64,000 nt of DNA, taken from positions 11,634-75,633 of the forward strand of contig CAZNNH010000009.1 of the NCBI GenBank assembly GCA_964574335.1, in the 5' to 3' direction. The notes beneath the pieces were generated by a model. The model made no database searches. It had not been told where the DNA came from and saw only the letters and a program-made list of their open reading frames with translations. Each line of letters starts with the position of its first letter. Position 1 is the stretch's first letter. The DNA is from an uncultured Acidobacteriota bacterium. GTDB taxonomy: Bacteria > Acidobacteriota > Vicinamibacteria > Fen-336. A program made the position numbers and the translations under genes. Shown here in pieces: positions 88-48,149 of the stretch.

Positions 88-379
88 AGTCTCGACGGGT
101 ACGTCACCAGCCCGACCGCCAGCGCGGCCAAGGCGACGAGGATCCGTCGCAGGCCAGCCCCGGGTGTGCGCGAGATCCTCGCTCGCCATGCGAGCGGCAC
201 CGCAGGCGCCGCGCCAGGTCTACTAGCGGAGGACCGCGCCGCGTGCCCCGTTTCGATGCGCCCTGAGTGGCACGTGGCTTGCACCATTCCTCCCTGAGAG
301 CCCAGGCGAGGCCGGATCGCGGCGTCTCCCTGCCGTCCGAGCGCCGTCGCGGCCTCGAAGAGCAGCGGAGGATTCCTTC

Positions 380-1654
380 ATGCGTCTCCCAAAGACAGCC
401 GTCGTCCTCGGCGTTCTGGTGGCGGTCGTCGCCGTGGCGGCGCTCCTCATCCGCCAATTCGCCTTTGCGGAGCAGGCGCCTACGTTTCGCTACGCTACCG
501 TGGAGCGGGGCGACCTCCAGGCCCGCGTCTCAGCCACTGGGACGCTCCAGGCCGTCACGACGGTCAGCGTCGGCACACAGGTTTCCGGGCAGGTCTCCGC
601 GCTCCTCGTCGACTTCAACGACCACGTCCGAAAGGGCCAGCTCCTGGCACGAATCGACCCGACGCCCGCGCAGCAAGCGGTAGCCGACGCGCAGGCGAAC
701 CTCGAAAAGCTGCAAGCGCAGGCCAGCCAGGCCTCACGCGATCAGGCTCGCAGCCGCGAGCTCTCGTCAGCCGGGCTCATTGCGCCCAGCGAGCTCGAGC
801 TGGGCGGTGCCGCGCTGCAGGTCGCAGAGGCCAGCGAAAGATCCGCCCGCATCTCCCTGGAGCGGGCGCAGCAGAACCTGTCCTACACCTCCATCTACGC
901 GCCCATCGACGGTGTCGTCATCGAGCGCAACGTCGACGAAGGACAGACGGTCGCCGCCAGCCTGTCCGCTCCGCAGCTCTTCCTCATCGCCAACGACCTC
1001 ACGCACATGCAGATCCTCGCGCGGGTCGGCGAGAGCGACATCGATCAGATCCAGCAAGGCCAGACGGTGGAGTTCAGCGTCCAGGCGTTGCCGGGCCGTA
1101 CCTTCACCGGCAGTGTGCAGCAGGTACGTCTGCAGTCGACAACGGTGGACAACGTCGTCAACTACACCGTCGTCGTGACAGTGGAGAATCCCGACCGCAA
1201 GCTGCTGCCCGGAATGACCGCGCGCGTCGACTTTCTGGTGAGATCGGCGGTCAACATCCTCAAGGTGGCCAATGCGGCGCTCCGCTACAAGCCCAGCGAC
1301 GCGGTGCTGGCGCGGCTCGGCCCTGCAGCGACGCCCACCGAAGCCACGACGCCTGGCGGCGCGAAACGCGCGGTGAGTAGCGGGGGCGCATCCGGCGGGG
1401 TGCGTTCCGGGAGCCCGAACGGCGTCGGCACGCTGTACTCGCTCGACTCGGACGGCCGCCTGCAGGCCGCACGCGTCCACACGGGGCTGAGCGACGGGGC
1501 GTCGACGGAGGTTCGGGGGGGAGGCGTGAGAGAAGGCATGCAGGTCATCGACGGCCTCGCGCCGTCGACGAGCTCTGCGCTGCGGACGCCCTCGGCCAAC
1601 CCGCTAGGTGGTGCTCAGCAGGGCGCGCGCGGCCGAGGCGGCAGCGGCTTCTGA
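380..1654 (+). CDS. macA: Efflux transporter periplasmic adaptor subunit (MacA/HlyD family), with Gly/Ser/Pro-rich C-terminal linker insertion
   Basis: N-terminal TM anchor, then RYATVERGDLQARVSATGTLQAV...VSGQV...ARID (biotinyl/lipoyl-like and coiled-coil regions) and membrane-proximal domain LYSLDSDGRLQAARVHTGLSDG; directly upstream of MacB-type ATPase and permease. Confidence 0.8.
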   Translation: MRLPKTAVVLGVLVAVVAVAALLIRQFAFAEQAPTFRYATVERGDLQARVSATGTLQAVTTVSVGTQVSGQVSALLVDFNDHVRKGQLLARIDPTPAQQAVADAQANLEKLQAQASQASRDQARSRELSSAGLIAPSELELGGAALQVAEASERSARISLERAQQNLSYTSIYAPIDGVVIERNVDEGQTVAASLSAPQLFLIANDLTHMQILARVGESDIDQIQQGQTVEFSVQALPGRTFTGSVQQVRLQSTTVDNVVNYTVVVTVENPDRKLLPGMTARVDFLVRSAVNILKVANAALRYKPSDAVLARLGPAATPTEATTPGGAKRAVSSGGASGGVRSGSPNGVGTLYSLDSDGRLQAARVHTGLSDGASTEVRGGGVREGMQVIDGLAPSTSSALRTPSANPLGGAQQGARGRGGSGF

Positions 1655-1668
1655 AGAGGCAGAGCAAC

Positions 1669-2412
1669 GTGAACGACATCCTTATCCAGACCGACAAGCT
1701 CACCAAGACCTATGGCAGCGGCACGAACCAGGTGCATGCCCTGCGTTCCGTGGACTTGACCGTCACCCGGGGCGAGCTGGTGGCCATCATGGGGGCCTCG
1801 GGGTCCGGCAAGTCGACGCTGATGAACCTGCTCGGCTGTCTCGATACGCCCACGTCAGGGTCGTACACGCTGGATGGCGCGCGCGTCGACGGGCTCGGCA
1901 AGAACCAGCTCGCCGCGCTCCGCAATCAGAAACTGGGCTTCGTCTTCCAGGGATTCAACCTGCTGGCGCGCACCAGCGCCGTCAAGAACGTCGAGCTGCC
2001 GCTGCTGTACGACCGTAGCGGGCGCAAGCGGGACACCCGCGCGCTCGCCGTGGCGGCGCTCGAGCGTGTGGCGCTCGGCGATCGGCTCGATCATCTGCCG
2101 AACGAGCTGTCCGGGGGACAGCAGCAGCGAGTGGCCATCGCGCGGGCCCTGGTGGCCGAGCCTGCGCTGGTCCTGGCGGACGAGCCGACCGGGAACCTCG
2201 ACAGCCACACGACGATGGAGGTCGTGGCCCTCTTCCAGCACCTGAACCGGCAGGGCATCACGATCGTCGTCGTCACGCACGAACCCGACGTGGCCGTCTA
2301 CGCGACACGCATCGTCGCGATGCGCGACGGCCAGATCCTCAGCGACCAGCCGGTCACGAACCGCCGCAGCGCGGCCAGGGACCTGGAGGAGCGCGACAGG
2401 AGCGCGGCATGA
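1669..2412 (+). CDS. macB: ABC transporter ATP-binding protein, MacB/LolD type
   Basis: Walker [10 protein letters not shown], signature [15 protein letters not shown], Walker [14 protein letters not shown]-loop VVVTHEP; N-terminus [15 protein letters not shown] typical of MacB/LolD ATPases. Confidence 0.9.
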
Positions 2413-3629
2413 AGCTGTCGCTGGTGATGGTCGGCCTCGCGCTGCAGAGCATCCTGAAGAACAAGACGCGGGCGATGCTGACGATGCTCGGAGTCGTCAT
2501 CGGCGTGGCCGCCGTGATCGTGATGGTCGCGGTCGGCTACGGGGCGCGCTCACGCATTCGCGAGCAGATCGGCAGCCTCGGTACGAACATGATCGTCATC
2601 ACGCCCGGTGCGAGCAGCAGCGGCGGCGTGAGCCAAGGCGCGCAGGCCTTCGCCACGCTGACCCTGGCCGACGCAGACAAGATCCGCAACCAGGCGCAGA
2701 CCGTGGTGGCGGTGTCTCCCGTGGTCGGCGGCCGCAGCCAGGTCATCGGGCCCGCCGCCAACTGGCGTACCACGATCAACGGTGTCGACACCGACTACCA
2801 GACGATCCGCGACTGGCAGACAGAGGCCGGGGCGTTCTTCGGGCCCGATGACGTGCGCGCGGCGCGTGGCGTCGCCGTGCTGGGGCGCACGGTGGCGCAG
2901 CGTCTGTTCGCCGACAGCGACCCCGTCGGTCAGGAGATCCAGGTGGCGGCGCTGCGCTTCAAGGTGACGGGGGTTCTGGTGCCGAAGGGACAGACCGCGA
3001 GCGGCAGCGACTCCGACGACGTGATCCTGATCCCGTACACCACCGCGGTGACCCGCCTCGCGGGTAGGCTGCGCATTCCGCAGATCCTCGCCGCCACCGC
3101 CTCGGAGAGGGACATTCCGGCCGCGCAGGAGGAGGTAGCGGCGCTGTTGCGCGAGTCGCACCACATCAACCGCGATGACGAGGACGACTTCACGGTCCGC
3201 AATCAGACCGACCTCGCCACCGCGGCGGAGAGCAGCACGCGCGTGATGACGCTGTTGATGGCGGCGATTGCATCCATCTCACTGCTCGTCGGCGGCATCG
3301 GCATCATGAACATCATGCTCGTCTCGGTCACGGAGCGGACTCGCGAGATCGGCATACGCCTCGCGATCGGCGCGCGCGGCTCGGATGTGCTGACCCAGTT
3401 CCTCGTCGAGAGCATCGTGATGGGCATCCTCGGGGGCATGGGCGGTCTGGCTGTTGGGATCGCGAGCGCTGAGGTGCTGGCGCACTTCACCGGCTGGGAG
3501 ACGGTGATCTCGCCGCTCGTCATGGTCGTCGCGGTCGGCTTCTCGGGGGCGGTGGGCGTCTTCTTCGGGTACTATCCGGCCCGGAAGGCGGCGGCGCTGA
3601 ACCCGATCGAGGCGCTGAGGTACGAGTGA
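2409..3629 (+). CDS. ABC transporter permease, MacB/FtsX family (periplasmic MacB domain plus 4 TM)
   Basis: ATGA overlap with upstream ATPase; N-terminal TM, large periplasmic domain, C-terminal FtsX-like TM bundle (ERTREIGIRLAIGARGSDVLTQFLVESIVMG...); ends ...NPIEALRYE typical of MacB permeases. Confidence 0.9.
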   Translation: MKLSLVMVGLALQSILKNKTRAMLTMLGVVIGVAAVIVMVAVGYGARSRIREQIGSLGTNMIVITPGASSSGGVSQGAQAFATLTLADADKIRNQAQTVVAVSPVVGGRSQVIGPAANWRTTINGVDTDYQTIRDWQTEAGAFFGPDDVRAARGVAVLGRTVAQRLFADSDPVGQEIQVAALRFKVTGVLVPKGQTASGSDSDDVILIPYTTAVTRLAGRLRIPQILAATASERDIPAAQEEVAALLRESHHINRDDEDDFTVRNQTDLATAAESSTRVMTLLMAAIASISLLVGGIGIMNIMLVSVTERTREIGIRLAIGARGSDVLTQFLVESIVMGILGGMGGLAVGIASAEVLAHFTGWETVISPLVMVVAVGFSGAVGVFFGYYPARKAAALNPIEALRYE

Positions 3630-4426
3630 GCCCGAGCGCCTCGGCCGGACGTGACGTGTACGCGAGAACTCTCCGACGCGTCGCTCGTTGGATGCTCCTG
3701 AGCGCGGTGCCTGTGCTCGTCTTCCTGGCCTACCGCTGGACTGCGCGAAAGTTGGACCCCACCAGTACGGTCGAAGAGGGCGTGTTGGCGCAGCGGACCG
3801 TGGCGCTCCAAGCCCTGGTGGACGCTGCGGACCGCGGCGCGCTGTTGAGCTTCAGGCACGCCCTGGTGATCGTCGATCAGGGCCTGGTGCAGGATCTACT
3901 GCGAGCGGCGATGCCCATCGAGGGGCCCGTGGGCGCCTTCCAAGTCCGGCTTGAGTCGGCCGAGGCGTCCTTCGGCGACGGCCTTGCGCTCATCCACCTC
4001 AACGGCAAGGCGACCCTGATCCAGTCGTCGGTGGCTGCGGACCTCAGGGTCTACGGGACGCTCGAGGTCGTGAAGATCGACCCGGGCTCCGGGCTGTTGC
4101 GTTGCGAGGTGCGGGTGTTTGGCGTGGAGGCCGACCGCGCCAACGTACTGGGAATCGACGAGCCTTTGCGTGGGGTGGCGGAGGCGCTCAGTCAGGGCGG
4201 CCTCGCGGCGCTGCTGCGCTTCGTGGAGATCCCGGTGCGCATCGACGATCACCTCACGCTTCCCGCCGTGGACTGCGAGCGTCTGCGCATTCGCGCGGCA
4301 GAGGTCCCGATCCGGGTCGAGGTGGCCAAGGTGAAGGTATTCGGGGGCAAGCTCTGGGTGGCGCTCGCTGAGCAACCATCGACGCCGGCGCAGACGGCCT
4401 CGGCCGCGCAGCGGATGCGCCAGTGA
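3626..4426 (+). CDS. Membrane-anchored hypothetical protein, translationally coupled to MacB permease
   Basis: GTG start overlapping permease stop (GTGA); N-terminal TM WMLLSAVPVLVFLAYRW; no recognisable family motif. Confidence 0.5.
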   Translation: MSPSASAGRDVYARTLRRVARWMLLSAVPVLVFLAYRWTARKLDPTSTVEEGVLAQRTVALQALVDAADRGALLSFRHALVIVDQGLVQDLLRAAMPIEGPVGAFQVRLESAEASFGDGLALIHLNGKATLIQSSVAADLRVYGTLEVVKIDPGSGLLRCEVRVFGVEADRANVLGIDEPLRGVAEALSQGGLAALLRFVEIPVRIDDHLTLPAVDCERLRIRAAEVPIRVEVAKVKVFGGKLWVALAEQPSTPAQTASAAQRMRQ

Positions 4427-5769
4427 GCCTCGCGCGCACGCTCGCGCTCCTGGTGGCGGCAGGCCTGGCTGCGGGCTACGTCGAGTCGTTGACCCGCGGC
4501 GATTCGGCGGCGCGTGTGCTGGAGCTGCGGCGCCTCCACGACGAGTTGCACGGCCGGCTCGAGGCCGGCGTGGGACGCGATCCCATCGCCGCGCGCGCGT
4601 TCGCCGATCCGGGCCAGATCGCCATCGCCGTGCGCGCGGGCCTGATCGAAGACCTGACCGCGCGGGTAGCGCGCCAGTACCTCCAGCAGGTGACCGTCGA
4701 CTTGACAGGGGTGGAGGCGCACGCAGAGGGAGATCTCCGCAAGGACACGTTGATCGGCCGCAAGAGAGTCGGTGAGTGGGCGGTGGCGGTCGTGATCAAG
4801 GAGCTGGTCGGCCGGCTCAGCGCCGGCCAGCCACGGCTGACCTTCGCCAGCAACGTGCTCGAGGTCGAGTTGCCCTTGGAAGTGCAGCCGGCCTCGGGCC
4901 AGATCGGCCTGCACTTCTCCTGGGACTCGGCCGCCGTCTTGAACCTGGTGTGCAAGGATTTCGAGGTGGACTTGGACGTCGACGGCCGCGCCCTGCGCCA
5001 ACAGCACGTCCTGCGCGGCCAGATCGAGCTGGCGGCCGACGACGACGCGCTCACCGCCACGCCGGTGATCCACGAGCGTTCCTTTCCCTTCAAGATCGAG
5101 CTGACGCCGGACTCGTGGGGCAAGGTCGAGACGGCTCTTCGCTCACAAGACTCGCTCGGACGTTGCGGGATGTTCCTCGATCCGGAGAACGTGCTGCGAA
5201 GCCTGCGCGAGCGCGTCGCCGAGGGCATCGAGATCCGATTGCCACGCTCGCTCTTCCAACCGGTGCGACTGCCGGCGCGCTTCGAACGAACGGTGAAGGT
5301 CGACGACAGCGTGGTGCATCTGTCACTGGCCGGCGAACGGCTGCGCTCCAGCGAGTCCATGCTGTGGTCGAGCACCAAGGTCAGCGTGGCCCTGGCGCAG
5401 GCGGCCGACAAGGCCTGGATCTCGATGAAGAGCGAGAGCGCGCTGATGACCACCGACGGCGCGGGCCGCAACGCCGTCGAGGTCGAGGTGGACCACGGAA
5501 AGGTCAGGCTCCACGGGACGGTCGACAGCCAGACGGTGAAGGACAAGGGCGAAGCCACCGCTCGCAGCGTCGGTGACGTGACGGACGTCCGGAACCTGCT
5601 GCAGGTCGTGAAGGAGTCCCGCCAGGAGTCGGTGAAGACCGCTGACATCCTCGCGTTCCTGACGGGGTACACCACCAGCCTGGCACACGAGCGTGGTGCC
5701 ATCGAGCCCGCCTACGACTCGGCCCTCTCCGCCACGGCCCGCAGCATGCCGGCGAAGATGCGGCGGTGA
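4423..5769 (+). CDS. Hypothetical secreted/membrane protein with C-terminal BON domain
   Basis: GTGA overlap with upstream gene; N-terminal hydrophobic segment LALLVAAGLAAGYV; C-terminal VEVEVDHGKVRLHGTVDSQTVKDKGEATARSVGDVTDVRNLLQV matches BON (OsmY-like) domain pattern. Confidence 0.5.
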   Translation: MSLARTLALLVAAGLAAGYVESLTRGDSAARVLELRRLHDELHGRLEAGVGRDPIAARAFADPGQIAIAVRAGLIEDLTARVARQYLQQVTVDLTGVEAHAEGDLRKDTLIGRKRVGEWAVAVVIKELVGRLSAGQPRLTFASNVLEVELPLEVQPASGQIGLHFSWDSAAVLNLVCKDFEVDLDVDGRALRQQHVLRGQIELAADDDALTATPVIHERSFPFKIELTPDSWGKVETALRSQDSLGRCGMFLDPENVLRSLRERVAEGIEIRLPRSLFQPVRLPARFERTVKVDDSVVHLSLAGERLRSSESMLWSSTKVSVALAQAADKAWISMKSESALMTTDGAGRNAVEVEVDHGKVRLHGTVDSQTVKDKGEATARSVGDVTDVRNLLQVVKESRQESVKTADILAFLTGYTTSLAHERGAIEPAYDSALSATARSMPAKMRR

Positions 5770-7175
5770 AGGGGGTAGATCCCGTACCAGTAGATCAGGC
5801 CACCCAGCCCCACGGGATCGAATACAGCCGTCTGGCGGATCTCCGAGCCGTCGCCCGTCGGCTTCACCTCGAACTCCAGCCAGGCGCGGCCGGGGAGCTT
5901 CATCTCGGCGGCCAGCCGCAGCCGCCGGTCCGGCTCGCAGGCCTCCACGCGCCAGAAGTCGAGGGCGTCCCCCACCTGTAGCTGCTCGGGATCTCGGCGG
6001 CCGCGCCGCATCCCCACGCCGCCGACGAGCAGATCCATGAAGCCGCGCAGCCGCCACAGCCAGTTGGCGTAGTACCAGCCTCTATGTCCGCCCAGCCGGC
6101 GGATTGGCGCGAAGGCCGCCGCGGGACTCGCCGAAACGGTGGTCGTCCGGGAATCGACCAGTCGGGAACCAAACTTGACCCCGCCCCAGCTCTGGGGGTG
6201 ACCCGCCGAGGAGATGGCATCTGACCACCGCGTCACGGCGTAGCGCTGGTCTTCGTTGCTGATGGCGCGGGCGATGGCTTGGCTCAGGCCCATGGGACGC
6301 ACGGCGAAGGCGTCCCGAGCCTCGTCGTTGGACACCACAGTCGGATTGCGGACGCCCTCGATGAGCTTTCGGCCCACTCGGGCATAGACGGGGGTGGTCA
6401 GGCCCAGCCAGAGTGAGGAGAGCCAGGGGGTGAGCACCGGCACCGGCAACAGGAGCCGGCGAAGACCCCGCTGCCGGGCGTACTCCGTCATGATCTCCGC
6501 GTAGGAGACCGGGTCGGCACCGCCGATCTCGAACACTCTCGAGCCCTCGTCCGGCAGGTCGAGAGACGCCACCAGGTACGCGATCACGTCCTCGATGGCG
6601 ATCGGCTGTGCGCTGACGTGCACCCAACGCGGACAGATCATGACCGGCAGCCTCTCGACCAGGGCACGGATCAGCTCGAAGGACAAGCTCCCCGAGCCGA
6701 GGACGATCGAGGCGCGCAGCTCGACCACGGGGACACCGCAGGCGCGCAGCGCCTGGCCGGTTTCCTGACGGCTGCGCAGATGGGGGGAGAGGCTCCCCGT
6801 CGTCTGTCCCAGGCCACCGAGATAGATGATGCGTCGAACGCCGGCCCGGGAGGCCGCGGAGCCGAAGCTCTCGGCGGCCCGACGATCGAGATCCGCGAAG
6901 TCCCCGGTGGAGCCCATGGAGTGGACCAGGTAGTAGGCCACGTCGACGGCGGCCAGGGCTGGCTCGAGGGATTGTGGCTCCAGGCAATCGCCGCGCACCA
7001 CCTCCGTCTGCGGACCGACTCTCCGCTCGAGATACTCAGGGCGCCGGGCCAGGCAGCGCAGGGGGTAGCCCGCCTCCTCCAGTACCGGAAGCAGCCGTCC
7101 TCCCACATAGCCGGTGACGCCCGTGAGCAGGACCCGGGGCCGGATCATCCCCTCACCTCGTGGGTGGTGTGACAT
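5712..7175 (-). CDS. NAD(P)-binding SDR/NmrA-like oxidoreductase with C-terminal DUF2867-like domain (likely true start at Met near 7148)
   Basis: Rossmann motif RVLLTGVTGYVGGRL, NmrA/epimerase-like body, C-terminal ...WRVEACEPDRRLRLAAEMKLPGRAWLEFEV resembling DUF2867; 3' end overlaps convergent BON gene by ~58 nt. Confidence 0.7.
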   Translation of the reverse strand: MSHHPRGEGMIRPRVLLTGVTGYVGGRLLPVLEEAGYPLRCLARRPEYLERRVGPQTEVVRGDCLEPQSLEPALAAVDVAYYLVHSMGSTGDFADLDRRAAESFGSAASRAGVRRIIYLGGLGQTTGSLSPHLRSRQETGQALRACGVPVVELRASIVLGSGSLSFELIRALVERLPVMICPRWVHVSAQPIAIEDVIAYLVASLDLPDEGSRVFEIGGADPVSYAEIMTEYARQRGLRRLLLPVPVLTPWLSSLWLGLTTPVYARVGRKLIEGVRNPTVVSNDEARDAFAVRPMGLSQAIARAISNEDQRYAVTRWSDAISSAGHPQSWGGVKFGSRLVDSRTTTVSASPAAAFAPIRRLGGHRGWYYANWLWRLRGFMDLLVGGVGMRRGRRDPEQLQVGDALDFWRVEACEPDRRLRLAAEMKLPGRAWLEFEVKPTGDGSEIRQTAVFDPVGLGGLIYWYGIYPLHRRIFAGMLRAVAERAES

Positions 7176-7437
7176 CCGAGATGTCGCGCTTGCTGGTTCA
7201 GCATCCTCGCTCCGGTGGTCCAGCCCCTCCGAGGCGGCCAGGCTGAGGGGGCTTCATGCCCACAGCGTATCTGACCGCAACGGGAATCTCATTCGATTTC
7301 GACGGGGCCAAGGGGCCTCCCGCCCCATGGCTCGCCGCGAACACAGCCGCTGGCCAGATTGTGACCCTGCACCGCGTGGCTCCGTCCGGACCGTACGGTT
7401 CCGGACACCCGCTCGGGCAGGTAAGATTCCCGGAGAC

Positions 7438-8382
7438 ATGAGCGGCACACCGGCGGCTCCGGGGCACGGCTCGGCATCTCGGGGCCTCGACACCCCGATC
7501 CTCTTCTACAACCGGCATACCGGTCGGATCGAGGAGGAGGAGGTCTACGGGGGCCACGGCGTCTGGCTCGCCTATGCCTCGCCGATCGGCCCGCTGGTGA
7601 GGGTCGTCACGGCGCGAACCGCCTGGTTCTCCCGTCTGGTCGGCTTCTGGATGAGCCGGCCGTCGAGCCGGCGACGGGTGCGACCCTTCATCGAGCGCTT
7701 TGGCATCGATCCGGGCGAGCTCGAGAAGAGCGCCGAGGAGTTCGTCAGTTTCAACGACTTCTTCACGAGGCGCCTGCGCCCGGAAGCGCGTCCGATCGAC
7801 CCGGACCCGGACAGCGTCGTCTTCCCTGCCGACGGGCGCCACCTGGGCTTCCAGGACCTATCGAAGGTCGACGCGGTGTTCGTCAAGGGCCAGCGCTTCC
7901 GGCTGGACGTTCTGCTCCGCGATGGGACGCTGTCAGAGCGCTACCGGGACGGGACAGCCGTCCTCTCGCGCCTGTGTCCCGTGGACTACCACCGCTTCCA
8001 TTTCCCGGTGGCGGGCACGCCGGGCGCGGCCCACCCGCTCGCGGGCCGGCTCGACTCGGTGAACCCGATCGCCCTGCGCCGCCGCCTCCGCGTGCTCTTC
8101 GAGAACCGCCGCCTGCTGACCATCCAGGCCACCGAGAGCTTCGGGACGGTGACGATGGTCGAGGTGGGCGCGACCTGCGTCGGCAGCATCGTCGAGACCT
8201 ACGTCGCCGGAGCCCATGTGGAGAAGGGGGCGGAGAAGGGGTACTTCCAGTTCGGCGGCTCCGCCATCGTGACGTTGTTCGAGCGAGGTCGGGTCCGCCT
8301 GGCGGCGGATCTCCTGGAGCAGTCGGCCGAGCGACGGGAGCTCTACGCGCACGTCGGCGAGCCTCTGGGATCGGGGCGTTGA
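7438..8382 (+). CDS. psd: Phosphatidylserine decarboxylase family proenzyme
   Basis: C-terminal pyruvoyl-forming GGS(T) site FQFGGSAIV, plus LCPVDYHRFHFPVAG and VNPIALRR... motifs typical of PSD. ORF extends to 7114 but the N-terminal 108 codons are Arg/Pro-rich and likely untranslated, so start is set at Met 7438. Confidence 0.75.
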   Translation: MSGTPAAPGHGSASRGLDTPILFYNRHTGRIEEEEVYGGHGVWLAYASPIGPLVRVVTARTAWFSRLVGFWMSRPSSRRRVRPFIERFGIDPGELEKSAEEFVSFNDFFTRRLRPEARPIDPDPDSVVFPADGRHLGFQDLSKVDAVFVKGQRFRLDVLLRDGTLSERYRDGTAVLSRLCPVDYHRFHFPVAGTPGAAHPLAGRLDSVNPIALRRRLRVLFENRRLLTIQATESFGTVTMVEVGATCVGSIVETYVAGAHVEKGAEKGYFQFGGSAIVTLFERGRVRLAADLLEQSAERRELYAHVGEPLGSGR

Positions 8383-8468
8383 CCCCGGCGGCGCGACCGG
8401 TTGCCGACCAGGGCCGCCCGAGAAGCGACGGGTGGTTCCCGCGCCCGCTCGACTGGTAGGATGGGTGC

Positions 8469-9716
8469 ATGATTATCCTCGTCCTCAACAGCGGAAGCTC
8501 CTCCCTCAAGTTCCAGGTCATCGATACCGACCTCGAAGCCATCGAGAAGAACGCCGACGAGACCCTCGCCGAAGGAGTCATCGAGCGGATCGGCTCCGAG
8601 GCCCTCATCACCCTGCGGGCCGAGGGCAAGCCCTCGGCCCGCAGCACCGCGCCGCTCCGCGACCACCGGGCGGCCCTGGACAAGGTGCTGCGGTGGCTGG
8701 TGTCCCCCGACTCCGCCGTCCCCGGCGTGGCCTCCATCGGCGACATCGCCGCGGTGGGCCATCGGGTGGTCCACGGCGGCGAGAAGTTCACCAAGTCGGT
8801 GGCCATCGACGACGCGGTGGTGGACCAGATCGAGGACTGCATCGAGCTGGCGCCCCTCCACAACCCCGCCAACCTCAAGGGGATCTACGCCGCCCGTGAG
8901 ATCCTCGGCCAGGGGGTGCCCCAGGTCGCGGTCTTCGACACCTCGTTCCACTCCACCATGCCGGACACCTCGTACCTCTACGCTATTCCCTACCAGTTGT
9001 ACGTCCGGCACAAGGTCCGGCGCTACGGCTTTCATGGGACCTCGCACCGCTACGTGGCGTACCGCTACCGAATCCTCACCGGGAAGTCCTACGAAGACAC
9101 CCACATCATCACCGTCCACCTCGGCAACGGCTGCTCGGCCTGCGCGATCCAGAAGGGCAACTCCATCAACACCTCGATGGGCCTCACCCCCCTCGAAGGC
9201 CTGGTGATGGGCACCCGCGGGGGCAATATCGACCCCTCGATCCTGGAGTTCCTCCACCACAAAGAGGGGCTCACGCTGGATCAGCTCGACACCCTCCTCA
9301 ACAAGCAGTCCGGTCTCCTCGGCATCTCCGGGCTCACCAACGACATGCGGGACCTGCTGGAGGAGGAACGGCTCCACCAGGACCGGCGTGCCCGGCTCGC
9401 CATCGACATCTTCTGCGAGAGGGTGAAGTTCTACCTTGGGGCGTACATGGCGCAGATGAACGGGGCCGACGCCGTGGTCTTCACCGGCGGCATCGGCGAG
9501 AACTCCCCCGAGGTCCGTGAGCGGATCTGCAGGGACCTGGACGTCCTCGGGATCGCCCTCGACAAGAAGAAGAACAAGGCCACGGTGGGCCGCAAGGAGG
9601 GCGACATCTCCGCCGAGAAGGCGAAGGTGCGGGCCTGGATCATCCCCACCAACGAAGAGCTCCTCATCGCCCGCGACACCGTGCGCTGCATCAAGGACGC
9701 CCCGCGCCGCTGGTAG
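8469..9716 (+). CDS. ackA: Acetate kinase
   Basis: Canonical N-terminus [34 protein letters not shown]-terminal [10 protein letters not shown] motif. No pta adjacent. Confidence 0.9.
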
Positions 9717-44930: not shown

Positions 44931-46349
44931 ATGGCCGCGAGCAGCCTCCTCGCCCTGATCGACGACATCGCGACCATCCTGGACGACGTCGCGCTCCTCA
45001 CCAAGATCGCGGCCCAGAAGAGCGCGGCGGTGGCCGACGACGTGGCCCTCTTGACCAAGGTCGCCGCCAAGAAGACGGCCGGCGTGCTGGGGGACGACCT
45101 GGCCCTCAATGCCGAGCAGGTGAGCGGGGTCAAGGCGGACCGGGAGCTGCCCGTCGTCTTCGCGGTCTTCAAGGGCTCCCTCGTCAACAAGGCGATCCTG
45201 GTCCCCGCCGCGCTCGTCATCAGCGCCGTGGCGCCGTGGGCGGTGATCCCGCTGTTGATGATCGGCGGCCTGTACCTGTGCTTCGAGGGCTTCGAGAAGG
45301 TGGCGCACGGCTTGCTGCACGGCCGGGCCGAGGACCAGGAACGTCGCGCCGAGCTGACCGCGGCGCTGCTGGCTCCCGGCGCCGACCTGGCCCGGGTGGA
45401 GCGAGACAAGATCAAGGGGGCGGTCCGCACCGACTTCGTCCTCTCCGCCGAGATCATCGTGATCACGCTGGGCACGGTGGCCACCGCGCCGTTCGTACAG
45501 CGGGTCGCCGTGCTGACCGGCGTCGCGGTCCTGATGACGGTGGGCGTGTACGGCGTGGTCGCCGCCATCGTCAAGCTCGACGACCTGGGCCTCTACCTGA
45601 GCCGGGGCGGCGGCGAGGCGCGCCTTTCGCGTCTCAGGCGCCGCCTGGGGGACGGGATTCTCGGCGCCGCGCCCTTCTTGATGCGCCTGCTCTCCATCGC
45701 CGGCACCGTTGCCATGTTCCTGGTCGGCGGCGGGATCCTGGTGCACGGCATCCCGCCCCTGCACCACCTCGCGGTGGACCTCACCGGTGGCGGCGGCGTG
45801 ATGGCGGGCCTGGGCTCGATGCTGGTCAACACCCTGGCGGGTGTGGCCGCAGGGGGCCTGGCGCTGGCGGCTGTCGCGGCCGGCCGGCGGCTGTCGGGCC
45901 GCAAGGGTCGGCCGGAGGCCGCCTCAGCGGAGCAGGCGGCCGACGCTGACGTAGACGCCGAACGCGCCCCGGTTGCCCAGGCTGGCACCCGCGAAGATCG
46001 GCCCCAGAAAGGTGTCGAGGGCCACGCCGGTGGTGAGGCATCCCTCGAGGCGCGCGGCGGAGGCGTGGTCGAAGGCGCTGCCGAGCTCGACCTGGGCCGC
46101 CAGGCGGACCGGTCCGCCGAGAAGGTCGGGGAGCCGTCCGACCGACAGCAGGTACCCGAGGTGAGCGTAGACGAAGTGCCGGCCCCGGAAGGTGTCGGGG
46201 GCGAAGGCGCCCAGCCGGAACGGTCCACCCAGGGTGAAGCGGTAGATGGGGGGCGGCGACTCGCGCAAGGCGGTGCCCCCGCGGAGGGTGGCGAAGAGGC
46301 TGTCCGAGCGGCGGACGGAGGTGGCGGCCACCATGGTTCCGGCCAGTAG
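44931..46349 (+). CDS. DUF808 (YedI-like) inner-membrane protein with extended low-complexity C-terminus
   Basis: MAASSLLALIDDIATILDDVALLTKIAAQKSAAVADDVALLTKVAAKKTAGVLGDDLALNAEQV closely follows the YedI/DUF808 N-terminus. First in-frame stop only at 46349, so the C-terminal ~140 codons overlap the convergent patatin gene. Confidence 0.65.
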   Translation: MAASSLLALIDDIATILDDVALLTKIAAQKSAAVADDVALLTKVAAKKTAGVLGDDLALNAEQVSGVKADRELPVVFAVFKGSLVNKAILVPAALVISAVAPWAVIPLLMIGGLYLCFEGFEKVAHGLLHGRAEDQERRAELTAALLAPGADLARVERDKIKGAVRTDFVLSAEIIVITLGTVATAPFVQRVAVLTGVAVLMTVGVYGVVAAIVKLDDLGLYLSRGGGEARLSRLRRRLGDGILGAAPFLMRLLSIAGTVAMFLVGGGILVHGIPPLHHLAVDLTGGGGVMAGLGSMLVNTLAGVAAGGLALAAVAAGRRLSGRKGRPEAASAEQAADADVDAERAPVAQAGTREDRPQKGVEGHAGGEASLEARGGGVVEGAAELDLGRQADRSAEKVGEPSDRQQVPEVSVDEVPAPEGVGGEGAQPERSTQGEAVDGGRRLAQGGAPAEGGEEAVRAADGGGGHHGSGQ

Positions 46350-48149
46350 CGGAAAGGCGCGCTCCGCCTCGGGCGCGCGAGTGTAGAAGGACGCCTGTGC
46401 CTCCAGGCGGAAGCCGGCCTCGGGGAGGATCGGCGTCCGCATCTTGTCGATGTCCAGACGGGCCAGGAAGCGGTCCTCGCGTCCGTGCGGCTCTCCCAGC
46501 ACCGGGTTGCCGACCCGGACGTCGGCGTCGACGTGGCTGGTCTCGAAGCCGGCCCGGAGCTCGAAGTGGCGACCCGGCCCGATCCCGACGTCGACTCCGG
46601 CGCCGGTGCGCCGGGTCCGGTAGGTGGCTACCAGGGCGTCGTCGTGGAAGAGGTTCTGGGAGGTCTCATCGAAGAAGACACGGGGCGCCAGGAAGAAGCG
46701 TGGCCGCCCCACCGGGCGGTACAGCTCGGTGGCCACTCCCCGGCTCGACCCGGCCGCCAGGTCGACCCGCAGCTCGGATCCGACTCCGACCAGATCCGTC
46801 ACCGTGACCCGCGCGCCGAGATCGATGACCACGGCGCCCGGCTCGGTGGCGAGGTCCAGGGAGAAGTCGACGAAGGGCGGCGCGTGGGCCTTCTCCTGGA
46901 ACCGGACCAGCAGGCCCGGCCTTCCCCCGGCCTCGGTCGCCTCGTAGGTGGCGCTCTCGTAGCGCCCCGAGCCGATGATGCGGGTGAGCCTGTCCTCGAG
47001 GCGATCGGCGTCGAGGGGCACGGTCAGGGAGCGGGTCAGCGACGGGCCGAGGGCCTCGGCTTGCGGCGAGGGGATGCCCTCGACGCTCACGAAGACGGGC
47101 TCCTCGAGCGGCGCCGGGCGACGGGCGCGACGGGCGGCGAGGTGCTGCAGCCAGGCGGCCTGGTCGAGGCGCAGCGGCAGCAGTTGCTGGCTGGCCGCCG
47201 CCGCCGCCTGGTAGCCGCGCCGGATCAGCTCGGCCGCACGTCGGAAATCCAGGGAGTCGAAACCCTCGAGCTGCGGCTCGAGCACCAGGTCGGCGTCCTT
47301 CAGGGTGCGCCGGGTCGCCGAGTCCATCATCACCACCACCGAGCGGTTGACCAGGCCGGTCATCGAGAGGCTGGTGGGCTGGTGCAGGTTCTCGCCCACC
47401 GACACCGCCACCACCACGTCGGCGCCCATGGCGCGGGCCACGTCGGCCGGGACGTTCTTCAACACGCCGCCATCCACCAGCAGCCGACCCTGGTAGCGGG
47501 ACGGCGCGAACACACCTGGGATGGCCATGGTGGCGCGCAGCGCCTGGACCAGCGAGCCCTCGTGGAGCGCCAGCGCCTCGCCCCGCTCGATGTCCACGGC
47601 CACGCATCGGAAGGGGATGGGAAGGTCGTCGAACGACTCCCGGGCGGCATGGGGGAAGGCGATGCGGCTGAGGAGGAGACCGATCTGGTGGCCGGAGCTG
47701 AGGCCGCTGGGCAGCGAGAGGCCGCCGCGCAGCCCGAGCTCGACGTCCACCGGGTACTGGCGCCGGTCCTGCTTGCGGCGGAAGGTCCGCTGCGGGTACG
47801 GGACGTCGCTCTCGAAAAGCCTGTCCCAGTCGGCCTCCAGCAGCAGGTCACGGATCTCGGCCGCCGACATCCCGGTGGCGTAGCCGCCGCCGATCAGCCC
47901 GCCCAGGCTGGTGCCCGCCACGTAGTCCACGGGGATCCGGTTCTCTTCCAGCCAGAGCAGCACGCCGGCGTGAGCGATGGCGCGCGCGGCGCCCCCACCG
48001 AGGGCCAGGCCCACCCGTGGCCGCGACGCGGGATCGGCGAGCACGCGCTGCCCGCCCGGCAACAGGAAGACCGCCAGCGTGGCCGCGACGACGGCCAGCG
48101 CGGGTCGTCGCCTCGGCTCGCCCTGGCTCATGGGCGTCCACGTTAGCAC
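45924..48149 (-). CDS. Patatin-like phospholipase with C-terminal Omp85-type beta-barrel (PlpD-like, type Vd autotransporter)
   Basis: Signal peptide; GLALGGGAARAIAHAGVL (GxGxxG oxyanion), GTSLG (GxSxG nucleophile), catalytic DGG; C-terminal ~350 aa with alternating beta-strand pattern and FTLGGPFRLGAFAPDTFRG Omp85-like motif. Confidence 0.8.
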   Translation of the reverse strand: MLTWTPMSQGEPRRRPALAVVAATLAVFLLPGGQRVLADPASRPRVGLALGGGAARAIAHAGVLLWLEENRIPVDYVAGTSLGGLIGGGYATGMSAAEIRDLLLEADWDRLFESDVPYPQRTFRRKQDRRQYPVDVELGLRGGLSLPSGLSSGHQIGLLLSRIAFPHAARESFDDLPIPFRCVAVDIERGEALALHEGSLVQALRATMAIPGVFAPSRYQGRLLVDGGVLKNVPADVARAMGADVVVAVSVGENLHQPTSLSMTGLVNRSVVVMMDSATRRTLKDADLVLEPQLEGFDSLDFRRAAELIRRGYQAAAAASQQLLPLRLDQAAWLQHLAARRARRPAPLEEPVFVSVEGIPSPQAEALGPSLTRSLTVPLDADRLEDRLTRIIGSGRYESATYEATEAGGRPGLLVRFQEKAHAPPFVDFSLDLATEPGAVVIDLGARVTVTDLVGVGSELRVDLAAGSSRGVATELYRPVGRPRFFLAPRVFFDETSQNLFHDDALVATYRTRRTGAGVDVGIGPGRHFELRAGFETSHVDADVRVGNPVLGEPHGREDRFLARLDIDKMRTPILPEAGFRLEAQASFYTRAPEAERAFPLLAGTMVAATSVRRSDSLFATLRGGTALRESPPPIYRFTLGGPFRLGAFAPDTFRGRHFVYAHLGYLLSVGRLPDLLGGPVRLAAQVELGSAFDHASAARLEGCLTTGVALDTFLGPIFAGASLGNRGAFGVYVSVGRLLR

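Follow-up and report, generated by a model that had tools for sequence, protein, structure and literature searches.

Five closely packed genes lie near the left end of the stretch of DNA analysed here, 64,000 nucleotides (nt) of contig CAZNNH010000009.1 from an uncultured Acidobacteriota bacterium of the Vicinamibacteria (hereafter the window). The first three encode a MacAB-type ATP-binding cassette (ABC) transporter, and the last two, called gene 4 and gene 5 below, encode putatively membrane-tethered proteins which an earlier note, made from the sequence alone, had taken for accessory subunits of this pump. Comparison with related loci and structure prediction point elsewhere, to a gene pair that travels without the pump and whose products are predicted to share the lipid-binding TULIP fold. 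The features of the region are collected in Table 1.

Table 1. Features of the five-gene region (window coordinates)
Feature	Position	Strand	Evidence or remark
Sigma-54-type -24/-12 match TGGCACGTGGCTTGCA	268..283	+	97 nt upstream of the macA ATG; perfect consensus
MacA-like periplasmic adaptor (membrane fusion protein)	380..1654	+	HlyD_D23 E 2.2e-26; TIGR01730 RND_mfp 172 bits (above cut-off); MacA equivalog 166 bits (below cut-off of 342)
ABC ATPase of MacB/LolD type, a gene of its own	1669..2412	+	ABC_tran E 1.9e-31; best NCBIfam match the MacB N-terminal half, 263 bits, next LolD, 233 bits
MacB-type (type VII ABC) permease with periplasmic core domain	2409..3629	+	MacB_PCD E 5.5e-49; FtsX E 2.3e-17
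Gene 4, open reading frame of 266 amino acids (aa); predicted signal-anchored single TULIP-like domain	3626..4426	+	Family alignment, structure model
Putative rearrangement junction; unrelated sequence where relatives have a sigma-54-type promoter	3630..3650	+	blastn edge; promoter absent
Gene 5, open reading frame of 448 aa including the fused BON part	4423..5769	+	Open reading frame, Pfam BON
Gene 5 core, ~322 codons; predicted exported, TULIP-like; invariant C177 and C248	4423..5390	+	Relatives end here; homology to relatives stops at 5390
11-nt microhomology GTCAGCGTGGC at the in-frame junction of gene 5 and BON	5380..5390	+	Gene-5 homology to 5390, BON homology from 5380 (blastn)
Remnant of an OsmY-like two-BON gene: end of signal peptide and BON domain 1 only	5380..5647	+	blastn and protein comparison
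Non-homologous 41-codon tail (40 aa and stop) replacing BON domain 2	5648..5769	+	Nothing similar to BON proteins after 'VKTAD'
Convergent SDR-like NAD-binding and DUF2867 gene, right edge of the inserted block	5712..7175	-	DUF2867 E 8.8e-37, profile 5-142 of 142, complete; NAD_binding_10 E 5e-12

MacB is split in the window, its ATPase and permease being separate genes that overlap by ATGA. The GTG of gene 4 at 3626 overlaps the stop codon of the permease (GTGA), and the start of gene 5 overlaps the end of gene 4 in the same way, so that both overlaps are of 4 nt. A GGAG or GAGG motif lies 5-10 nt before the start of every gene of the unit but gene 5; the GAGG found 5 nt before GTG 3626 is supplied by an AGG arginine codon among the last codons of macB. 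The earlier note was correct in its reading of the two open reading frames, of both GTGA overlaps and of the hydrophobic N-termini, all of which are present in the sequence. Between macB and 3626 we found neither a sigma-70-like promoter nor a terminator-like site, a check which that note had proposed, and the G+C content is flat across the five-gene region. The pump operon of the window contains no TolC gene. With its 4-nt overlaps, Shine-Dalgarno-like GAGG motifs, lack of a terminator and loss of the promoter usual for gene 4 (see below), the unit is packed like a single operon, and the sequence is compatible with co-transcription of gene 4 and gene 5 with macAB. As a description of this genome the operon-like arrangement of five genes stands; the MacAB neighbourhood, however, is not conserved in related loci.

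Assemblies, GTDB genomes and JGI metagenomes yielded 56 related loci, of which 52 are independent (where named, from Vicinamibacteria, other Acidobacteria and metagenome-assembled genomes (MAGs) of Gemmatimonadota); we searched all of them with the proteins of the window by tblastn. The flank available upstream of gene 4 exceeded 300 nt in 34 loci, 1.5 kilobases (kb) in 19 and 4 kb in 13. Wherever the contig leaves space for both genes (45 loci), gene 4 is directly followed by gene 5; the remaining 7 are loci in which gene 5 would start 144 nt or less from the edge of the contig. Not one of the 34 loci whose upstream flank exceeds 300 nt has a MacA gene or a MacAB operon beside gene 4 (tblastn, 52 independent loci). 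The sole FtsX-type neighbour occurs in one locus (L017), in which a pair of duplicated permeases of the ADOP family is encoded 366 nt before gene 4, with the sigma-54-type promoter of gene 4 in the interval. ABC ATPases found 1.5-2.5 kb downstream of the pair in 3 loci are unrelated (31% identity), and the SDR/DUF2867 gene never occurs beside the pair in the related loci. These comparisons do not support a MacAB-accessory role, and the proposal of the earlier note falls with the very absence that it had itself named as decisive. Its premise, that accessories of MacB-type pumps are undescribed, does not hold either, since YknWXYZ is a four-component MacB-type transporter system (PMC4887032).

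The link between the two genes extends to their fusion. An exhaustive profile search returned 368 representatives of the gene-4 family (clusters at 50% identity), and 26 of the best 150 of these are natural fusions of gene 4 and gene 5, in the same order and 544-683 aa long. Such fusions include P0122, P0126, P0132, P0139 and P0144, among others, and several have long low-complexity linkers rich in Pro, Ala and Thr between the halves. BLASTP of gene 4 against gene 5 gave no match, and hhalign matched the two weakly at the C-terminus only, where the last ~60 residues of the two families cross-match (hhalign E 0.0025; cross-hits of hidden Markov models (HMMs) E 4e-6 to 8e-4). The conserved pairing, the natural fusions and this weak C-terminal similarity together point to a single functional unit, composed of two TULIP halves that are distant relatives of each other.

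Gene 4 has three candidate starts in the window, GTG 3626 (266 aa), GTG 3656 (256 aa) and ATG 3692 (244 aa), the last of which is the one that NCBI has chosen for this protein (P0001). Translation starts upstream of ATG 3692, because the peptide RTLRRVARW encoded before it is kept in relatives with Arg codons that differ synonymously at third positions. GTG 3656 is the start orthologous to those of relatives, and the 256-aa form is common among homologues; a start at GTG 3626 adds ten residues from DNA without counterpart in relatives. The protein is practically the same whichever start is used, and the gap to the macB stop is 62 nt at most.

Neither family has a name. The 75 homologues of gene 4 that we found are all unnamed and devoid of Pfam domains, and a Pfam and NCBIfam scan of the 266-aa protein matched no family. 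A hydrophobic N-terminal stretch is present in 176 of 203 members of the gene-4 family and a lipobox-like Cys in 91 of the 203; distant members have the lipobox LLPAC, and the clade of the window has a signal anchor instead. Gene 5 has 44 homologues, likewise unnamed and, except for a BON domain in two, without a Pfam domain; 42 of them are 261-367 aa long and end where the core of the window protein ends. Its distant members carry the lipobox LAGC. Two cysteines, C177 and C248, are invariant in gene 5 and would fit a periplasmic disulfide. Against three relatives, gene 4 has a ratio of nonsynonymous to synonymous substitution rates (dN/dS) of 0.29-0.31 and gene 5 one of 0.39-0.45, indicating that both are real genes under purifying selection.

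The BON domain which the earlier note had placed at the C-terminus of the second protein is real (PF04972; residues 329-396 of the 448-aa protein, E 5.3e-10, 39.9 bits against a gathering cut-off of 27, profile positions 1-68 of 69), but it is not a trait of the family, being absent from 42 of the 44 gene-5 homologues. Apart from the window protein, only one read-through gene call (P0119, in L018) has it. The region of L018 in question (7000-9300 of a long-contig relative) looks full of frameshifts, with genes 4 and 5 fragmented; P0119 is its gene 5 called as a read-through into the BON gene, and hence the sole other apparent BON-bearing homologue. In the window, positions 5380-5647 have 79-84% nt and 71% aa identity to residues 20-108 of standalone 174-aa BON proteins (L016, L040, L018), of which that of L016 matches OsmY. 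The n- and h-regions of the signal peptide and BON domain 2, which an OsmY-like two-BON protein possesses, are deleted in the window. The sequence GTCAGCGTGGC, at which the two parts join, is translated as 'VSVA' where gene 5 ends and corresponds to 'VGVA' in the BON signal peptide of the standalone proteins of L016 and L018. Past the remnant, the tail at 5648-5769 overlaps the convergent gene antisense by 58 nt, and the convergent gene is intact. The remnant has a dN of 0.18, against 0.087 in a BON-BON control, and a dN/dS of 0.36-1.0, against 0.18 (89 codons, a small sample), which suggests relaxed constraint. By these comparisons the BON part is a remnant of a local fusion and not a feature of the gene-5 family.

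The -24/-12 consensus of sigma-54 promoters is GG-N10-GC. A sequence of the pattern TGGC-N7-TTGC that fits it, TGGC(C/T)CGCATCTTGCT, immediately precedes gene 4 in the closest relatives of the window (70-85% identity; L001, L014-L017, L019-L024, L055, whose -12 half falls at the edge of the contig, and L056), and a variant, TGGCGCAGTTGTTGC, occurs in part of a clade of ~45% identity (L010, L030, L032, L035, L045); about 20 related loci have a sigma-54-type motif before gene 4. Since the start codon of gene 4 lies 13-16 nt past the -12 element (L014 7937-7967; L001 7973-8003; L010 9970-10003; two of them with GTG starts), the transcripts may have no leader, or next to none. We counted 78 copies of the motif in the 361 kb of related loci, where shuffled sequences would give 12.8 (~6-fold). 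This enrichment spans L001, L014, L016, L018, L021, L042 and other related loci. Besides the gene-4/5 operon, the motif precedes genes for CsbD, YtxH, Transgly_assoc, dodecin, OsmY-like two-BON and Omp85-family proteins, which looks like an undescribed sigma-54 regulon for envelope or general stress in Vicinamibacteria. In at least 8 loci the genes for a PAS histidine kinase and for a response regulator that carries a sigma-54 activator domain stand no more than a few kb from the pair.

Several other genes recur near the pair. A ClsB-like cardiolipin synthase is encoded directly upstream in 6 loci (L014, L015, L016, L019, L020, L024), scoring 192 bits against TIGR04265 and 172 bits against ClsB, both below the equivalog cut-offs (for example L014 6480-7934; L019 1-1032). 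We considered and rejected translational coupling of this phospholipase D-type (PLD) gene to gene 4, as L014 and L019 have a sigma-54-type promoter between the PLD stop and the gene-4 start. An Omp85-family outer-membrane protein is encoded directly up- or downstream of the pair in 7 loci (L005, L007, L030, L032, L037, L039, L042), with Pfam Omp85 at E ~1e-10 and NCBIfam Omp85_fam (L042 4820-6358, L005 254-1537, L032 6746-7915), and several of these genes have a sigma-54 motif of their own. An OsmY-like BON gene adjoins the pair in 5 loci. The BON gene to which the remnant in the window corresponds lies directly downstream of gene 5 in L018, ~0.9 kb downstream in L040 and 4 kb downstream in L016. 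In one subclade (L005-L009, L039, L042, L044) a third secreted protein of ~250 aa is encoded directly upstream of gene 4, and there the sigma-54 motif precedes the gene for this protein, making a three-gene operon; the protein (L042 6359-7135; L005 2187-2936; L044 6344-7216) has no Pfam or NCBIfam match. Taken together, the loci suggest that in relatives the pair is autonomous, with its own sigma-54 promoter in the clade of the window and in part of a second clade.

To what fold the two proteins belong was addressed with AlphaFold2 models built from the family alignments and compared with the PDB by Foldseek. In solved TULIPs a strongly twisted beta-sheet wraps around a long helix. The model of gene 4 has a pLDDT (predicted local distance difference test) of 82; that of gene 5 has 65 overall, with a core mostly at 65-90, and is of medium confidence only. 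The BON tail was modelled poorly, only two sequences covering the BON region. The top matches of gene 4 were OrfX1-OrfX3 (8fbd_B), YceB (probability 1.0, TM-score 0.57 by target), BPI, LBP and BPIFA1, and those of gene 5 were CETP (E 4.9e-4), Der p 7/Der f 7, JHBP, the SMP domain of TMEM24, and Takeout. Almost all top PDB matches of both models are thus TULIPs, members of the superfamily of tubular lipid binders (PMC5507252, PMC6791001), although the scores are modest (E 5e-4 to 5e-3, TM-scores 0.2-0.57). The convergence of two independent models makes the TULIP fold a call of medium strength for both proteins.

Sequence searches did not assign the pair to a family. Pfam and NCBIfam matched nothing but BON in gene 4, gene 5, 35 gene-4 relatives and 10 fused relatives. 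The HMMs of DUF4403 (PF14356), DUF2140 and DUF2993 matched none of these same proteins, a result in which the HMMER filters may hide very weak matches, and that of YceB/DUF1439 (PF07273) gave no Pfam match to gene 4 or gene 5 at E up to 1-10. A DUF4403-like fold, one of those that the earlier note had listed for checking, comes close: both proteins have TULIP matches and DUF4403 is a bacterial double TULIP, but no HMM match joins them. The pair thus appears to be a two-gene, sometimes fused, family of predicted TULIP fold that no Pfam family covers and whose regulatory and genomic setting is distinctive.

Our proposal is that gene 4 and gene 5 encode a split, BPI-like double-TULIP heterodimer that binds lipid in the periplasm, and which came from a sigma-54 envelope-stress neighbourhood and was captured behind macB in this genome; with some reserve, we consider this probable. 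Both products would be exported and held in the membrane by their N-termini, as signal-anchored proteins here and as lipoproteins in other clades. They would pair in the periplasm into an elongated body with a hydrophobic cavity, which would bind or shuttle an envelope lipid during a sigma-54-controlled stress response. BON domains are described as phospholipid-binding, and the single fused BON may add a contact to the membrane or may simply be decaying.

Several observations weigh against this proposal. No sequence-level link to a known TULIP family emerged from the Pfam scans, and sequence profile searches of the PDB gave chance matches only (picornavirus VP1, a lectin). When the gene-4 and gene-5 alignments were compared with YceB by hhalign, the signal peptide alone was matched, with probabilities of 0.2% and 3.4%, a weak test given the shallow YceB alignment (enterobacterial, 81-88% identity). 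The sigma-54 promoters are consensus matches, from which dependence on sigma-54 is read, and a search upstream of the pair in more distant clades found no such consensus. Finally, the arrangement of the window is seen on a single MAG contig.

A bolder version of the proposal can be drawn, in which a Pfam-less double-TULIP lipid-transfer family of Acidobacteriota and Gemmatimonadota, part of a sigma-54 envelope-stress regulon, moves or buffers phospholipid between the membranes together with the Omp85-family, OsmY-like BON and ClsB-like proteins, and is wired in this genome to a MacB-type extractor for an energised, Lol-like hand-off. In this full form we think it unlikely. That the MacB-type transporter of this genome passes cargo on to the TULIP pair, in the way of LolCDE-LolA, is, taken by itself, possible, and it is the adjacency of the genes that suggests it.

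Similarly doubtful, to our mind, is that the pair has the TULIP shape but serves another purpose, either binding a different hydrophobic ligand (a hopanoid, a carotenoid, a quinone or the acyl chains of lipoproteins) or acting beside OsmY-like proteins as a stress-protective periplasmic chaperone or scaffold. The TULIP relatives among the top matches indeed bind very different ligands (JHBP, Takeout, Der p 7), the neighbourhood consists mostly of general stress proteins (CsbD, YtxH, OsmY-like BON, dodecin), and the pair has no conserved link to a known lipid transporter. The recurrence of cardiolipin synthase, Omp85-family and BON neighbours, however, points to membrane lipid.

How the pair came to lie behind macB may be read from the edges of its homology to relatives. 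In blastn comparisons with six relatives, homology begins at 3651-3655, that is, from 22 nt past the macB stop for position 3651, and from 3651 to 5390, which covers gene 4 and gene 5, nt identity is 79-88%. No sigma-54 consensus is present just upstream of gene 4 in the window (3630-3650), and the 3' end of macB lies there instead. Decay of the old promoter in place was rejected as less likely, identity being 12/30 before GTG 3656 against ~86-88% in the adjoining coding DNA (hand alignment); replacement of the promoter is more likely. We propose that a promoterless block (3651-5647) comprising gene 4, gene 5 and the first BON of an OsmY-like gene was captured directly behind macB. A deletion at the microhomology would have removed the stop codon of gene 5, the spacer and the first ~19 BON codons, joining gene 5 and BON in frame.

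Because the captured block is promoterless, expression of gene 4 and gene 5 would have to be supplied by read-through from the MacAB operon. The pattern TGGC-N7-TTGCW occurs twice in the 64-kb window, against 0.29 occurrences expected, at 268-283 and at 45301; the second match lies inside a DUF808 gene and is probably due to chance. The match at 268-283 is likely to drive the whole five-gene unit in this genome, judging by its sequence and position, and the captured pair, now the last part of the pump operon, could by this route remain under sigma-54 control. Sigma-54 may also control the MacAB-type operon as such, an uncommon arrangement among efflux pumps. No homologue of a sigma-54 activator was detected in the 64-kb window, nor does the window contain homologues of the kinase, the Cls, the Omp85 or the ~250-aa gene of the related loci. 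Two genes of lipid metabolism lie elsewhere in it: one for a phosphatidylserine decarboxylase (PS_Dcarbxylase E 6e-50; 7114-8382, plus strand), just past the convergent SDR/DUF2867 gene, and one for a 741-aa patatin-like phospholipase (45924-48149, minus strand).

We take the rearrangement to be biological. That the contig is instead chimeric, with a 2-kb fragment (3651-5647) of one population wrongly placed between the macB and SDR/DUF2867 genes of another, has in our estimate only a slight chance. The arrangement is unique among the 52 loci, the exact gene 4 and gene 5 proteins occur on one contig only, and homology to relatives stops sharply at both edges of the block, all of which would fit a chimera. 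Against it, G+C content and skew are continuous over both junctions, we noticed no long repeat at 3630-3650 that could mislead an assembler, the microhomology at 5380-5390 is, at 11 nt, too short for assembly collapse and is in frame, and the left edge of the block has a Shine-Dalgarno-like motif and an overlapping start.

Least probable of all, and very unlikely in our view, is that the two proteins serve the MacAB-type pump as dedicated subunits, accessory or regulatory, and that BON tethers it to the envelope: the tight packing (GTGA overlaps, GAGG, no terminator), the lack of a promoter for gene 4 in the window and the frequent use of periplasmic partners by type VII ABC transporters, such as LolCDE-LolA, FtsEX-EnvC and YknWXYZ (PMC5985334, PMC4887032), would favour it, but none of the 34 flanked loci has MacA or MacAB, the closest relatives (80-85% identity) have a sigma-54 promoter at that place, DNA homology to them breaks just past the macB stop, and the BON domain is a truncated remnant.

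Tight operon packing in one MAG thus did not predict function; synteny overturned the pump idea and exposed a recent rearrangement made of a capture and a fusion. If the double-TULIP proposal is correct in its wider form, the pair would stand as the TULIP-based equivalent of TamA/TamB or Mla. The traffic of phospholipids between the membranes of diderm bacteria is still being worked out (Mla, AsmA/TamB/YhdP and MCE systems), and bacterial TULIPs are its least understood candidates, with few structures and no clear physiology. The present family lends itself to experiment, being an obligate gene pair, fused in some lineages, with a recognisable type of promoter and neighbours that point to lipid. 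Its hosts, the Acidobacteriota and Gemmatimonadota, are soil phyla whose envelopes have barely been studied.

Among known systems, MacAB-TolC, LolCDE-LolA and YknWXYZ resemble the locus in that the pair stands in line with a MacA, an ATPase and a MacB-type permease, yet it does so in this genome only and normally has its own promoter and different neighbours. An acceptor of hydrophobic cargo served by a MacB-type extractor would resemble LolCDE-LolA, whereas the link between pair and pump recurs in none of the 34 loci. The Omp85 gene beside the pair in 7 loci is reminiscent of TamA/TamB, in which an Omp85 protein is paired with a lipid-transfer protein.

Bacterial TULIPs encoded in operons with their binding partners offer another parallel, as in OrfX1-OrfX3/P47, where OrfX1-OrfX3 is a heteromeric complex, and in the operonic pair TipA/TipB of Bdellovibrio. 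In the latter, however, the partner of the TULIP is a small beta-sandwich adapter (bioRxiv 10.1101/2025.09.09.675085) and not a second TULIP, and the OrfX proteins belong to toxin clusters (clostridial neurotoxin) of monoderms; neither TipA/TipB nor the OrfX proteins have sequence similarity to gene 4 or gene 5. YceB, an Escherichia coli lipoprotein (3l6i), was the second-ranked structural match of gene 4 and the one of highest probability, over ~185 aligned columns. Like gene 4 it is a small, exported single-TULIP protein of a kind that is often a lipoprotein, and gene 4 looks most like it, but the two have no sequence or profile relationship, and YceB is a single gene with a predicted homodimer as product (PMC6791001), whereas gene 4 always has a distinct partner.

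The proposed pair is like BPI, LBP and CETP in having two TULIP modules in one elongated lipid-binding body, which in these eukaryotic proteins is one polypeptide and here is divided between two genes; sequence identity is ~10-14%, the TM-scores are low, and the pair gives no evidence of the beta-meander interface. In its presumed working the pair is nearest to such BPI-type double TULIPs and to their bacterial likeness DUF4403, a pseudo-dimeric, BPI-like double TULIP (Levine 2019, PMC6791001). DUF4403 differs from the pair in several respects: the halves of the pair come from two genes that differ in length (~230 and ~300 residues, not counting the signal), have, like ten fused relatives, no Pfam DUF4403 match at E up to 1, stand in a sigma-54 promoter context and, in the loci seen, are confined to Acidobacteriota and Gemmatimonadota. 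Both, nevertheless, are exported, membrane-anchored or lipoproteins of diderm bacteria with predicted lipid binding in the periplasm, and the one-chain architecture of DUF4403 is mirrored by the fused gene 4-gene 5 forms, with two TULIP-like halves per unit.

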